A DNA stretch of 39,225 bases from Candidatus Aenigmatarchaeota archaeon (GCA_049976365.1 JBMFIJ010000002.1:1-39225); one strand, 5' to 3'; shown: positions 7,253 to 39,225, counted from the stretch's first letter. Numbers and translations are program-made. Notes: generated from the sequence alone by a model not told the origin.

Positions 7253-7359
7253 GCCCCGCTCGTCTAGTCCGGTCAAGGATACAGCCCTTTCGAGAAGAAA
7301 GGTTTGATAAAAATATGAGAAGAAAGGCTGGGACACGGGTTCAAATCCCGTGCGGGGCA
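7253..7359 (+). tRNA. tRNA-Glu (anticodon TTC) interrupted by a ~32-nt intron at the canonical 37/38 position
   Basis: Acceptor GCCCCGC/GCGGGGC, D arm GTCT-AGTCCGGTCAA-GGAT, anticodon stem CAGCC (7282-7286) / GGCTG (7326-7330), loop CTTTCG...A, 4-nt variable GGAC, T arm ACGGG-TTCAAAT-CCCGT, discriminator A. The anticodon-stem halves pair only after removing ~32 nt. The spliced length is 75 nt. Confidence 0.9.
7293..7324 (+). other. tRNA-Glu intron (boundary ambiguous by 1 nt)
   Basis: Sequence agaagaaaggtttgataaaaatatgagaagaa lies between nt 37 (g7292) and nt 38 (a7325). It contains GAAAG complementary to the anticodon-loop CTTTC, as expected for bulge-helix-bulge formation. I did not fold it computationally. 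Confidence 0.7.
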
Positions 7360-36158: not shown

Positions 36159-36281
36159 ATGGAAGAGAGAACATCAAAAATCATCCTTTCAATAATAATC
36201 GGAGTAATAATTCTAATTTTTCTGATATTAATTGCAGTAAACTATCTTTGGAGGTTTCCAATAAAGGTGGTTATAAAATGA
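36159..36281 (+). CDS. Mini-ORF 1: 40-aa single-TM peptide
   Basis: MEERTSKIILSIIIGVIILIFLILIAVNYLWRFPIKVVIK. It starts 3 nt after the platform gene stop. Its TGA overlaps the next ATG (ATGA at 36278-36281). Confidence 0.5.
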   Translation: MEERTSKIILSIIIGVIILIFLILIAVNYLWRFPIKVVIK

Positions 36282-36454
36282 GAGGAATATCTCTTCCTTT
36301 TGATTTTCTTTATATAATCATATTTTTTCTTGCGATTGCTGTTGTGATAATAGGTATATTTGTTTTAATATCCTCTAATTTAAAGAAGGGTATAGAAAGT
36401 GGAACGATTTGGCAATGGATAGAGAATATGCTAAGAAAAGGGATGAAAGGATGA
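36278..36454 (+). CDS. Mini-ORF 2: 58-aa pilin-like peptide (MRG / hydrophobic helix)
   Basis: MRGISLPFDFLYIIIFFLAIAVVIIGIFVLISSNLKKGIESGTIWQWIENMLRKGMKG. It is preceded by aaaggtgg (36264-36271). The track ORF 36152-36454 adds an N-rich, low-complexity 42-aa extension that I consider unlikely. Confidence 0.6.
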   Translation: MRGISLPFDFLYIIIFFLAIAVVIIGIFVLISSNLKKGIESGTIWQWIENMLRKGMKG

Positions 36455-36645
36455 AGGCCACAATAGAATTGTCAATAAACTGGCTTGTTATTATCATACT
36501 ACTTTTACTTTCTACTATACTTGCTATAATCTTTTTAGGAATATTTTTTAAATCTTCTCCATTTGGAGCGACCGCTAAAGAAGTATGTTTGCTAACAATA
36601 GGTAAGCTTTTTGGCAAAGCGGAATTGTGTGAGGTTTTTATTTAG
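36451..36645 (+). CDS. Mini-ORF 3: 64-aa pilin-like peptide (MKA / TIELSINWLV...)
   Basis: MKATIELSINWLVIIILLLLSTILAIIFLGIFFKSSPFGATAKEVCLLTIGKLFGKAELCEVFI. There is an ATGA overlap with mini-ORF 2 at 36451-36454. Confidence 0.6.
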   Translation: MKATIELSINWLVIIILLLLSTILAIIFLGIFFKSSPFGATAKEVCLLTIGKLFGKAELCEVFI

Positions 36646-36661
36646 TAAATGTAATTAAAAT

Positions 36662-36817
36662 ATGGAGCTTCCAATTGATGTTTTAGTTTTGATAGCAATA
36701 GCCTTACTTATATTACTAATAGCTTACTTTTTTTATGTTAAAATAAAAGAATCAGGAACTTCCACTCTTTCAAACATCTTAAACATTCCAGATTTTCTAA
36801 AAAAGATGTTTGGGTGA
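36662..36817 (+). CDS. Mini-ORF 4: 51-aa single-TM peptide
   Basis: MELPIDVLVLIAIALLILLIAYFFYVKIKESGTSTLSNILNIPDFLKKMFG, starting 16 nt after mini-ORF 3. Confidence 0.5.
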   Translation: MELPIDVLVLIAIALLILLIAYFFYVKIKESGTSTLSNILNIPDFLKKMFG

Positions 36818-36821
36818 GATA

Positions 36822-36959
36822 TTGAGCGAAGATGAGTGGTGGTTAATACTAATGATAGTCCTCTTACTTATGGTGCTTTTTGTCGTAGGATTCATTTTAG
36901 TCAAAACCGATTGGATAGAAGCTATTTTAAGTTTTAAGTTGCCAAAGCCGTGGCGTTAA
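36822..36959 (+). CDS. Mini-ORF 5: ~45-aa single-TM peptide (TTG start, or ATG at 36852)
   Basis: (L)SEDEWWLILMIVLLLMVLFVVGFILVKTDWIEAILSFKLPKPWR. No upstream in-frame ATG exists, so the start is uncertain. Confidence 0.35.
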   Translation: MSEDEWWLILMIVLLLMVLFVVGFILVKTDWIEAILSFKLPKPWR

Positions 36960-36961
36960 GT

Positions 36962-37099
36962 ATGAAAGCAATACAGCTTTCAATAAAAACTTTAATTTTC
37001 CTTCTACTCTTTTTGATGTTACTTCTTCTTTCCATTTTCTTTGCTCTCTATTTAAGAGTAAGTTTTATTAATCTGCTAAAGCAATATATTTTCACTTAA
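36962..37099 (+). CDS. Mini-ORF 6: 45-aa pilin-like peptide (MKA / IQLSIKTLIF...)
   Basis: MKAIQLSIKTLIFLLLFLMLLLLSIFFALYLRVSFINLLKQYIFT. It starts 2 nt after mini-ORF 5. Its N-terminus resembles that of mini-ORF 3. Confidence 0.5.
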   Translation: MKAIQLSIKTLIFLLLFLMLLLLSIFFALYLRVSFINLLKQYIFT

Positions 37100-37388: not shown

Positions 37389-39225
37389 ATGAGATTTTTG
37401 ATTATAGGAAGTATAATTACAATTTTAATAGGTTTTGGAATATGGTGGTTTTTCATTCATTCTAACTCCGATAGAATAGCTGAAGAAAATGCTATAAAGT
37501 TTGTTAAAGCTGTTGATGTAGCTTGTGAAACAGGTCAAAGCGAAGTATATTTTGAGTTGCAACAGCCTTTTGTTGCGTCTTTAAAAGAAAAGTTTGAAGA
37601 AGGAATAGATTGGATTAAGAAAAAGTTGGGGTTAGGAGGTCCAGAAATAAACATTCCTGTTCAGACTTTTAACGATCCTTATTACAAAATTTACTGGGAA
37701 TATTTCCCTCCAGAACCACCATATTATTTCGGTCAAGGCGTTTTAGAAACTGCAGCTTCTATTTTTGCTCCTTGGTCAGAGGATTTACCTTGGTCTTCCA
37801 ATTTCATGCTTACCCTTACTTTTGATAGTTTATTTTTAGGTTTAGATATTTTAGGAACAGAAGAAGTGAAGACCACTATATATTCTTATGGTAGAAAGGC
37901 GGCTAACAAGTTAATAAGTGGTTTAGAAGCAGTTTCACCTGAAACCTTTGAAAAAGCAAGAGTAATATGGAATGCTATAGAAAAGGGGACAGATGCTACG
38001 ATAGAAAAATTGGGTAAGGCGGAAAGAATTGTTGTAAAAGGCGGAAAGCTTGTTATAGAAGAAGGAAAGTTTGTAGGAAAAGTTACTGCAGCCTATACAG
38101 TTTTTTGTCTAATTACACAAGATAAAACTTTAGGTGAATGTTTAAAAGAGGGTGTTATTTTGGGAATAGGTATGGATGTAACTAAGATAGTAGTTCAAAA
38201 GTTTGTCTGGCCTAAAGTAAAAGAAAAAATTCTTGCAAAATGGACTCAAACAAAAAATAAGTTTTATATGAAGTTGGATGAGTTTAAAAGCATTTTCTCA
38301 TCTTCCGTTGACGAAGAAGCAGATGAAGTTATTTCTTCCTTGAAAGAAAGCGTAGGTGATAAAGGATGGAAATATGATGAATCTATGAAAAGGTTTGTTG
38401 CGTCGTCTAGCGACGAAGTAGCTAAAGAAAATGTTATAAATCCTCTTTGGAAGTATGCCGAATCTACAGGTTATCCCGATAAAATTGATGATTTCATAAT
38501 AGTATATGAGTTTGATAAGGAAGGAAATGTTGAAGGAATAAAAGATGTAATTTACGATCCCAAAAGTTTGAAACAGAGGATATCGGAAAGAATTACGTAT
38601 CCAGTTAAAGAAAAGCTAGGAAGGCTAGAAGAAAAGATAATGAGCGACAAAATGCTTAAATCAGACAAATTTTCTGAGATTGCTGAGTATTCTAAAGAGT
38701 ATTTTGAGGAAAATCCAGAAGAAGCAAAAAAACTTTTAGCTACTACCGGTGTTAAAGTAAAAGATGAAAATGAAGCTGTTAAAATTTTATCTACTAGATT
38801 TACGAGAATAGGGGAGGAAGCAAATAAAGACTTATTTTTTGTAGTAGTTGAAAAGAACTCTAAAATGGAAGAGTTAGTTGAAGCGATGGAAAGAGCGGAA
38901 GAATCTGGTCTAACACCTAGAGAAATTTGGATAGATTATCTTAAAGAAGCAGCTAACGATCCGAAAGAAGCAAAAAATCTATGGAATTTGTTGAATGGGA
39001 AAAGATTAAGAATTAAAGAAGATATAGAAATATTTTCAAGAGGAACATTTGGTTATATGATTTTAAGAATTCAAGATCTTTATACGCCGCTTGGTGCAAC
39101 ATATTGGGATAGATATTTCTCATATTATGGCTATCCTTCTTTAGAACCTCAAAGAGAAGGCTTTTGTAAAACTCAATGTGAAGATGGAAAAATATGCATT
39201 CAGCTAGGAGCTTGCGTGAGAGAAT
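37389..39225 (+). CDS. Large N-terminally anchored protein of unknown function (at least 612 aa, 3' end beyond window)
   Basis: I translated by hand an uninterrupted frame from ATG 37389 to the window edge. A GTG at 37374 is also in frame, and aaggtga precedes the ATG. It is absent from the ORF track because it has no stop. The N-terminal TM is MRFLIIGSIITILIGFGIWWFF. The rest is hydrophilic with scattered Cys, including CKTQCEDGKICIQLGAC at the edge. Confidence 0.8.
   Translation, partial: MRFLIIGSIITILIGFGIWWFFIHSNSDRIAEENAIKFVKAVDVACETGQSEVYFELQQPFVASLKEKFEEGIDWIKKKLGLGGPEINIPVQTFNDPYYKIYWEYFPPEPPYYFGQGVLETAASIFAPWSEDLPWSSNFMLTLTFDSLFLGLDILGTEEVKTTIYSYGRKAANKLISGLEAVSPETFEKARVIWNAIEKGTDATIEKLGKAERIVVKGGKLVIEEGKFVGKVTAAYTVFCLITQDKTLGECLKEGVILGIGMDVTKIVVQKFVWPKVKEKILAKWTQTKNKFYMKLDEFKSIFSSSVDEEADEVISSLKESVGDKGWKYDESMKRFVASSSDEVAKENVINPLWKYAESTGYPDKIDDFIIVYEFDKEGNVEGIKDVIYDPKSLKQRISERITYPVKEKLGRLEEKIMSDKMLKSDKFSEIAEYSKEYFEENPEEAKKLLATTGVKVKDENEAVKILSTRFTRIGEEANKDLFFVVVEKNSKMEELVEAMERAEESGLTPREIWIDYLKEAANDPKEAKNLWNLLNGKRLRIKEDIEIFSRGTFGYMILRIQDLYTPLGATYWDRYFSYYGYPSLEPQREGFCKTQCEDGKICIQLGACVRE

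Follow-up and report, generated by a model that had tools for sequence, protein, structure and literature searches.

Conserved single-helix micro-proteins encoded behind the assembly ATPase and platform genes of a type IV filament operon in Candidatus Aenigmatarchaeota: candidate pilin-derived subunits

Introduction

Can proteins made of little more than one hydrophobic helix be subunits of an archaeal type IV filament machine? The question is raised by a stretch of 39,225 nucleotides (nt) from a Candidatus Aenigmatarchaeota archaeon (GCA_049976365.1, JBMFIJ010000002.1:1-39225), hereafter the window, in which the genes for a pilus-type ATPase and a membrane platform protein are followed by a series of very short open reading frames (ORFs). 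An initial annotation, made from the sequence alone, had drawn attention to positions 36159-37099 as a battery of tightly coupled mini-ORFs and proposed that some of these encode ultra-short, Flp-like archaeal pilins with a class III (prepilin) signal of three residues. This range comprises six mini-ORFs, o1 to o6, while a seventh member, o7, and the larger operon lie outside it; the annotation had missed both o7 and the continuation of the operon beyond the end of the window.

The general idea has precedents. Indeed, it was suggested that signal-bearing genes devoid of detectable similarity which stand beside FlaI/TadC genes in DPANN archaea are probably diverse pilins (Makarova, Koonin, Albers 2016; Makarova, Wolf, Koonin 2019), and the same general claim has thus already been published for such "dark matter" pilins. 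However, these papers contain neither the Aenigmatarchaeota battery nor its size class of 40-64 residues, its three-residue tag or the pattern of presence and absence of this tag. A 2026 preprint classifying archaeal type IV filament systems makes no mention of Aenigmatarchaeota, and we have found no published description of this battery.

The analysis reported here partly supports the initial annotation. The micro-proteins o1 to o7 are the products of real genes that belong to a type IV filament operon, and some of them have an N-terminal tag which is conserved and specific to this operon. The reading that we put forward, and which we regard as evenly poised between right and wrong, sees in o1-o7 micro-subunits without heads, derived from pilins and belonging to a lineage-specific type IV filament machine; those bearing the M-K-G tag would be processed, and they would have a minor, priming or base role.

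Results and Discussion

The mini-ORFs are selected genes of a type IV filament operon

All six mini-ORFs were recovered where they had been annotated (Table 1), including the two ATGA overlaps at 36278-36281 (o1/o2) and 36451-36454 (o2/o3), although the likely starts of o5 (36822) and o6 (36962) lie inside the respective ORFs; the TTG start of o5 is indicated by its orthologues and by a GGGTGA Shine-Dalgarno site. We have retrieved 46 related loci through the alignment of platform homologues, to which three more were later added (loci are designated by L and a number), and all these homologues derive from Candidatus Aenigmatarchaeota or from metagenome contigs. The order and frame of o1-o7 are kept in every locus with 47-65% platform identity for which downstream DNA is available. 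In total, about 25 related Aenigmatarchaeota loci share this arrangement, and o1 is conserved in 24 loci. The pooled ratio of nonsynonymous to synonymous differences (pN/pS) of the mini-ORFs is 0.31-0.52, being 0.31 for o1 and 0.50 for o7, and differences affect 54-59% of third codon positions versus 11-28% of second positions. Clearly, the conserved order and frame, together with this frame-specific purifying selection, establish o1-o7 as real, selected coding genes whose recurrence is far beyond chance. The conservation and frame-specific selection that the annotation had proposed to look for are thus observed, and its view of the ATGA overlaps as a sign of real, translationally coupled genes is borne out.

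A different origin could be suspected from the low GC content of the window (around 30%), which favours spurious hydrophobic ORFs, and from scattered weak matches to holin and micro-protein families: the mini-ORFs could have arisen by chance in AT-rich DNA between genes, or they could form an unrelated cassette, for example of holin, toxin or bacteriocin peptides. However, no family match recurs in more than 3 of the 46 members, and this explanation is already contradicted by the conservation data, namely the frame-specific selection and the strict synteny inside a pilus-type operon, which spans lineages of 36-65% platform identity. We thus consider it very improbable.

The location after pilus ATPase and platform genes is equally sustained. 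The ATPase matches Pfam T2SSE (E=3.5e-14) and the NCBIfam TadA-family and FlaI models (E=2.3e-37 and 3.1e-35, respectively). The link of the platform protein to T2SSF, although weak, is consistent: the window copy matches at E=0.02, whereas 16 of the 26 members of its family do so at E<=0.01 (best 2.9e-4), the weak top matches in the Protein Data Bank (PDB) are GspF, and one homologue carries the Joint Genome Institute name TadB.

The micro-protein families were collected by two-round searches and synteny; a four-round jackhmmer search was discarded, as the hydrophobic helix made it drift between families. Two loci of the collection deserve a separate comment. In L007 (9360-9473) o3 has only 37 amino acids (aa) with intact neighbours, which is likely to reflect a frameshift or an assembly error. 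Locus L001 (AWOA01000066.1), although filed under the bacterium "Candidatus Calescibacterium nevadense", carries a complete Aenigmatarchaeota-type operon with o1-o7 and 64% platform identity, and the contig is probably mis-binned or contaminating.

Table 1. The micro-protein battery and neighbouring genes in the window; a slash marks the predicted cleavage site.
Feature	Length	Position	Strand	Characteristics
o1	40 aa	36159-36281	+	MEERTSK, helix and basic tail KFPIKVVIK; untagged in the window
o2	58 aa	36278-36454	+	M-R-G/ISLPFDFLY helix and amphipathic basic tail
o3	64 aa	36451-36645	+	MKA/TIELSINW helix and near-invariant C-terminal KE[IV]CLLTIGKLFGKAELCEVFI (two Cys)
o4	51 aa	36662-36817	+	MELPIDVLV helix and tail ILNIPDFLKKMFG; untagged in the window; 16-nt gap after o3
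o5	45 aa from TTG	36822..36959 (ORF opens 36810)	+	MSEDEWW helix and tail ILSFKLPKPWR
o6	45 aa from ATG	36962..37099 (ORF opens 36950)	+	M-K-A/IQLSIKTL helix and short tail
o7	86 aa	37112..37372	+	Helix and six-Cys tail C-x8-C...C-x10-C-x3-C-x-C; seventh battery member
o8		37389..39225, cut by window end	+	N-terminal helix and large domain; 775-818 aa in relatives
Assembly ATPase	722 aa	32014..34182	+	TadA/FlaI-like; long N-terminal extension
Polytopic platform protein	670 aa	34143..36155	+	About 12 hydrophobic segments; distant T2SSF/TadB-C/FlaJ type
Divergent quartet	134, 214, 176 and 185 aa	29820..31998	-	Coiled-coil proteins (134 and 214 aa); paralogous proteins with five transmembrane segments (176 and 185 aa)

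A three-residue tag specific to the operon

We have scanned both strands of the window, from every possible start, for a [KR][GA] pair that occurs within the first 15 residues and precedes a hydrophobic stretch without charges. The matches are o2 (MRG/ISLPFDFLYIIIFF), o3 (MKA/TIELSINWLVIII) and o6 (MKA/IQLSIKTLIFLL), plus one internal start in a gene for a protein with five transmembrane segments (5-TM); o1, o4, o5 and o7 fail this class-III-style scan. In the sampled loci an M[KR]G start occurs in 7 of the 14 post-platform families versus none of the 143 ORFs of 150 aa or more outside the operon, and the tag is therefore specific to the operon.

The length of the leader had been put at three residues, and the ribosome-binding sites agree with this. 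In o2 the ATG of M-K-G follows a Shine-Dalgarno sequence (AGGTG/GAGGT) at a distance of 7-9 nt, which places the start at this Met, while in the o6 orthologues what looks like upstream "ME" codons is in fact the GGAG ribosome-binding site; taken together, this indicates that the leader truly has three residues. An upstream start of o6, MALSMKA, which would yield a seven-residue leader, was considered and ruled out by the same GGAG observation. The predicted lengths after removal of the tag are 42, 55 and 61 aa for o6, o2 and o3, respectively. According to a review of archaeal surface appendages, the peptidase PibD cuts engineered leaders even when these have only three or four residues, while the requirement of FlaK is five (PMC4187195); a three-residue leader is therefore biochemically plausible for a PibD-type enzyme.

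Paralogy and distribution of the tag among lineages

The related loci fall into six lineages, A to F, and the start composed of M-K-G and helix is kept in both o2 and o6 in four of these (A, B, C and F); o2 is also tagged in lineage E, and o6 is untagged in D and E. The annotated start of o2 and o6 is thus supported, as these proteins (like o3) pass the scan in the window and both retain the tag in four lineages; support is weaker for o3, whose tag is unreliable across its family, and in the lineage of L024 and L025 all three proteins are untagged, as detailed below. The o6 tag is found as MKG/ISL[SP][IF]K in lineages A and B, as MKKATG/IPLK in C and as MKG/FSFS in F. Other members gain the tag elsewhere: in L047 o4 is tagged (MKRG/VSLPIN versus MELPIN elsewhere) and o6 is not, and in L049, at 36% platform identity, 10 of 13 post-platform proteins are tagged, including o1 (MMKG/ATES) and o7 (MKG/ISLPSN). 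Overall, K/R-G/A is present in at least one of the six lineages in 13 of the 14 families, o5 being the only one that is never tagged.

The untagged orthologues are informative in this respect. In those of o1, o2, o4 and o6 the initial Met falls on the predicted +1 position or no more than one residue away, as seen for o2 in MKG/ISLPFD versus MELPFE, and this coincidence is the best indirect sign of cleavage, without amounting to proof. In addition, profile comparison using hhalign relates o2 to o6 (95.9%, E=6e-9) and o4 to o7 (94.2%, E=1.2e-7), and o2, o6, o4 and o7 have a common N-terminal core, x-[SE]-[LK]-P-Φ-[DNEK]. On this basis o2/o6 and o4/o7 are paralogues. The annotation had left open that the three peptides without the motif might be unrelated membrane micro-proteins, which is not upheld, since o4 and o7 are paralogous to o2 and o6 and tagged in other lineages. 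These features may be read as paralogous pilin-type helices with a tiny removable leader which has been repeatedly dispensed with.

The residue at +6 after the putative cut is conserved as acidic in o2 (ISLPFD) and as basic in o6 (ISLPFK/ISLSIK), which may point to charge complementarity between the helices.

Comparison with known pilin families and filament systems

Scans of the mini-ORFs, of o8 and of the downstream proteins against Pfam and NCBIfam returned nothing above threshold. More specifically, no match to Class_IIIsignal/DUF361 (PF04021) was obtained, either for the window proteins at E<=10 or for 46 family members at E<=0.1, and none to Flp_Fap (PF04964) among the mini-proteins in the same 46 members; a single one of the 46 sequences gave a sub-threshold match to Flp1_like (PF16982), with 18.4 bits versus a cut-off of 33.5. 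The QxSxExxxL motif with Q at +1 was not found, the +1 residue being I, V, A, S or T, and the Q at +2 of o6 in the window is not conserved. The EY of the Flp motif G/xxxxEY is likewise missing from all family alignments. The Q/E/S pattern that had been compared to DUF361 and Flp pilins is peculiar to the window copy, and this part of the initial annotation is not upheld. As to the type IV pilin fold, composed of the α1 helix and a β-sheet head, the mini-proteins leave no room for the head.

Small size by itself is not exceptional. The major pilin of Methanococcus maripaludis, MMP1685, has 74 aa including a 12-aa signal (PMC4187195), and with a mature form of 62 residues it makes the statement that the micro-proteins would be much shorter than characterised archaeal pilins an overstatement. 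The Epd pilus to which it belongs (with EpdE/MMP1685 and DUF361/Class_IIIsignal proteins as pilins) resembles the present system in its very small pilins, in the K-G cleavage context, and in the combination of several small and larger tagged proteins with one set of ATPase and platform. In Epd pilins, however, EppA removes a leader of 12 residues, the +1 residue is Q and the QxSxExxxL motif is present, whereas here the leader has three residues and the tag is optional between lineages; also, the gene of the major Epd pilin stands apart from those for assembly, while here the genes are within the operon.

A second comparison is with the Flp pilins of Tad systems, which are cleaved at Gly by an A24 peptidase to leave some 40-60 residues. 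The likeness consists of a single-helix subunit of about 40-60 residues and a TadA-like ATPase, the cleavage being a prediction in the present case. Flp leaders are longer than three residues, and flp genes usually lead their locus. Here, on the contrary, the battery is placed after the platform gene and translationally coupled, the G/xxxxEY motif is lacking, and there is no profile match save the sub-threshold one.

These comparisons bear on the strongest form of the initial annotation, in which a Flp/Tad-like filament would consist almost wholly of a single helix of 42-61 residues, with o2, o6 or o3 as its major subunit. Mature Flp pilins have about this size, as do the predicted mature products, an archaeal major pilin with a 62-residue mature form exists, and the occurrence of small together with larger tagged proteins mirrors the layout of the Epd system and that of flp with tadE/F. 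Nevertheless, we judge such a role unlikely: neither a Flp/DUF361 motif nor a profile match is found, the genes lie in mid-operon without promoter space of their own, there is no tandem amplification, a sister lineage has lost the tag, and the K at +6 in o6 is unusual within a pilin α1 helix.

Putative processed pilin-like subunits or accessory parts of the machine

According to the reading put forward here, the micro-proteins would represent, in several paralogous versions, an N-terminal helix in the style of type IV pilins that has little or no globular head, and they would be co-produced with the ATPase and platform of a machine that appears specific to one hot-spring Aenigmatarchaeota clade. 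A presumed A24 prepilin peptidase of the genome would most likely remove M-K/R-G from o2 and o6, and less surely from o3, at the cytoplasmic face of the membrane, which implies an N-in topology and would leave the N-terminus x-S-L-P-Φ-(D/K). After that, the helices may assemble among themselves and with the larger tagged downstream proteins, to give either a priming or base complex of the filament or a component of low abundance within it; the filament would be extruded by the ATPase/platform pair.

A number of observations weigh against this proposal. To begin with the enzyme, Pfam scans and a scan for G.GD in multi-TM proteins detected no Peptidase_A24, either within the 39 kb of the window or in the flanks of related loci, which total about 400 kb, although the family (PF01478) is listed for 21 of 23 published Aenigmarchaeota genomes (Li et al. 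2021; PMC8407114 supplement), which speaks for the proposal. The two 5-TM proteins encoded upstream were considered as a split or divergent prepilin peptidase and rejected, as they have no GxGD, no suitably placed Asp and no Pfam match. Furthermore, the micro-proteins have no profile similarity to any pilin family known to Pfam or NCBIfam.

The tag itself is not constant. In lineage D (L024, L025 and L028, 37-40% platform identity) o2, o3 and o6 are devoid of K-G and start with MELPFE, MNLS/MEIK and MMEFSIR, respectively, whereas the downstream proteins p9 and p10 of this lineage have K-L, the G being replaced by L; the loss of K-G in this lineage means that the tag is not essential. In o3 the tag varies even among close relatives (MKA, MKS, MKG and MIAS) and further out becomes MKIA, MP or ME, the invariant features of this protein being E6 and the C-terminal KE.CLLTIGKLFGKAELCEVFI.

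Topology and expression add to these difficulties. The charge bias predicts an N-out/C-in orientation for o1, o2, o4 and o5, which is the opposite of a prepilin, although this is a weak signal in proteins so short; o5, for example, has an acidic N-terminus and a basic C-terminus, with net flank charges of -3 and +3, and the positive-inside analysis overall yields mixed topologies, too weak to decide. The ATGA overlaps and the lack of promoter-sized gaps imply a synthesis roughly equimolar with the platform, unlike that of a major pilin, and each family consists of strict single-copy 1:1 orthologues. As sequence identities are 35-64% for the mini-ORFs and 45-49% for the platform, the rates are about equal, and the relative-rate argument is neutral. 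Single copies and platform-like conservation would seem to resemble machine parts and not fast-evolving, exposed pilins. In view of the coupling to the platform, the absence of promoter gaps, the single copies and the platform-like conservation, minor subunits or machine parts fit better than a major pilin.

Several of these observations would suit bitopic accessory subunits that remain unprocessed and surround or gate the platform, in a role like that of PilN/PilO or of the archaellum proteins FlaF/FlaG. In such a scenario M-K-G would be a short topogenic or translation-favourable start, and the filament would be formed by other pilins, either p9-p14 or the products of unlinked genes. The ATGA overlaps couple the genes to that of the platform, which implies that synthesis is stoichiometric, every family is single-copy and in fixed order in all lineages, with identities comparable to those of the platform, and the conservation of o3 peaks in its C-terminal tail and not in the helix. 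Also compatible are the acidic N-termini and basic C-tails of o1, o2, o4 and o5, the fact that K-G is dispensable in lineages D and E, and the existence of normal-sized pilin-like proteins downstream. FlaF/FlaG, which derive from pilins yet are not processed, and the bitopic alignment proteins PilN/PilO likewise have a single N-terminal helix, are co-encoded with ATPase and platform, and are retained at the membrane; however, they contain folded domains of 100-200 residues, whereas the micro-protein tails measure only 14-33 residues. Moreover, accessory subunits of this sort leave unexplained why N-terminal extensions, where they exist, nearly always take the form of K/R and then G across 13 families, why the starts of untagged orthologues fall near +1, and why the tag is absent from all other sampled genes. 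In addition, the battery was not found near the platform gene in the distant DPANN ATPase/platform loci that were inspected (L009, L031, L036 and L040). Altogether, we regard accessory subunits as a serious but somewhat doubtful explanation, less likely than pilin-derived subunits.

The lineage D loci (25-28% GC) have further peculiarities. The battery is inverted relative to the platform (L024 8883-10004, L025 2017-3113 and L028 1453-1921), o8 and the p-genes are upstream on the opposite strand, and the o6 counterpart has gained a two-Cys tail. As regards o3, its family comprises 26 clusters in 5.8e9 proteins, all named "hypothetical"; a search of its profile against 1.84e9 representatives returned only 5 clusters and no bridge to known families, and the AlphaFold2 model contains three helices at a predicted local distance difference test (pLDDT) of 65.

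The wider operon and its neighbours

As seen in relatives, the operon of this type IV filament machine has around 20 genes and extends past the end of the window: o8 is followed by five genes on the + strand encoding proteins of 116-143 aa (p9-p13) and then by the convergent p14, of about 330 aa. In the lineage of the window, where o2, o3 and o6 start with M-[KR]-[GAS] and the helix, the same tag also begins p9, p10 (KG/Q), p12 and p14, and o8 of L022 is also preceded by MRMKG. For o8 the only match is a weak one to pAdhesive_8 (E=0.016), and the protein is a candidate adhesin or tip protein. The model of p12 (pLDDT 90.8) combines a 66-residue N-terminal helix with a four-stranded sheet, an outline that would be pilin-like; however, Foldseek returned no PDB match at E<=0.001 for this model, so the fold assignment is unconfirmed, which also counts against the reading proposed here. 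When the PDB was searched with profiles of the p12 and p10 families, nothing but noise was obtained.

The Cys-rich tail C-x8-C...C-x10-C-x3-C-x-C is common to o7 and p13 (L012 11734-12090) and might represent a metal site or an extracellular mini-domain with a disulfide knot.

On the other side of the ATPase gene, none of the proteins of the divergent quartet matches a Pfam family. The quartet adjoins the ATPase/platform pair even in distant DPANN loci, namely L009 (a Woesearchaeota metagenome-assembled genome), L035, L036, L040 and L041, all of which lack the battery; it may thus form the conserved core of a filament or secretion module of DPANN archaea that is so far undescribed. Weak ArlX/FlaC-type matches were noted for the coiled-coil orthologues in L012. 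Elsewhere in the window, Rfam places a 107-nt transfer RNA (tRNA) at 7253-7359 (45.5 bits), which is not reported by ARAGORN and probably is an intron-containing archaeal tRNA.

Implications for DPANN filaments

DPANN archaea need physical contact with a host, and yet few of the subunits that make up the filaments of their type IV machines have been identified; in fact, earlier surveys did not find cognate pilins for some DPANN ATPase clades. A far-reaching possibility, which we consider improbable, is that the filament or its core is made of several paralogous single-helix subunits of 40-60 residues, whose leader would have shrunk to a droppable M-K-G, so that some subunits would bypass the peptidase with the initiator Met replacing the +1 residue, and that such a filament would serve the contact with the host. 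If true, this would represent an archaeal equivalent of the Flp pilus, with optional leaders and no heads, in a DPANN symbiont. The locus offers testable candidates, that is, seven micro-protein families and six larger ones, which have no counterpart in Pfam or NCBIfam and for the most part escape the thresholds of gene calling. The K-G tag, which comes and goes among orthologues, provides a natural experiment on the minimum length of a class III signal and on whether assembly requires processing.

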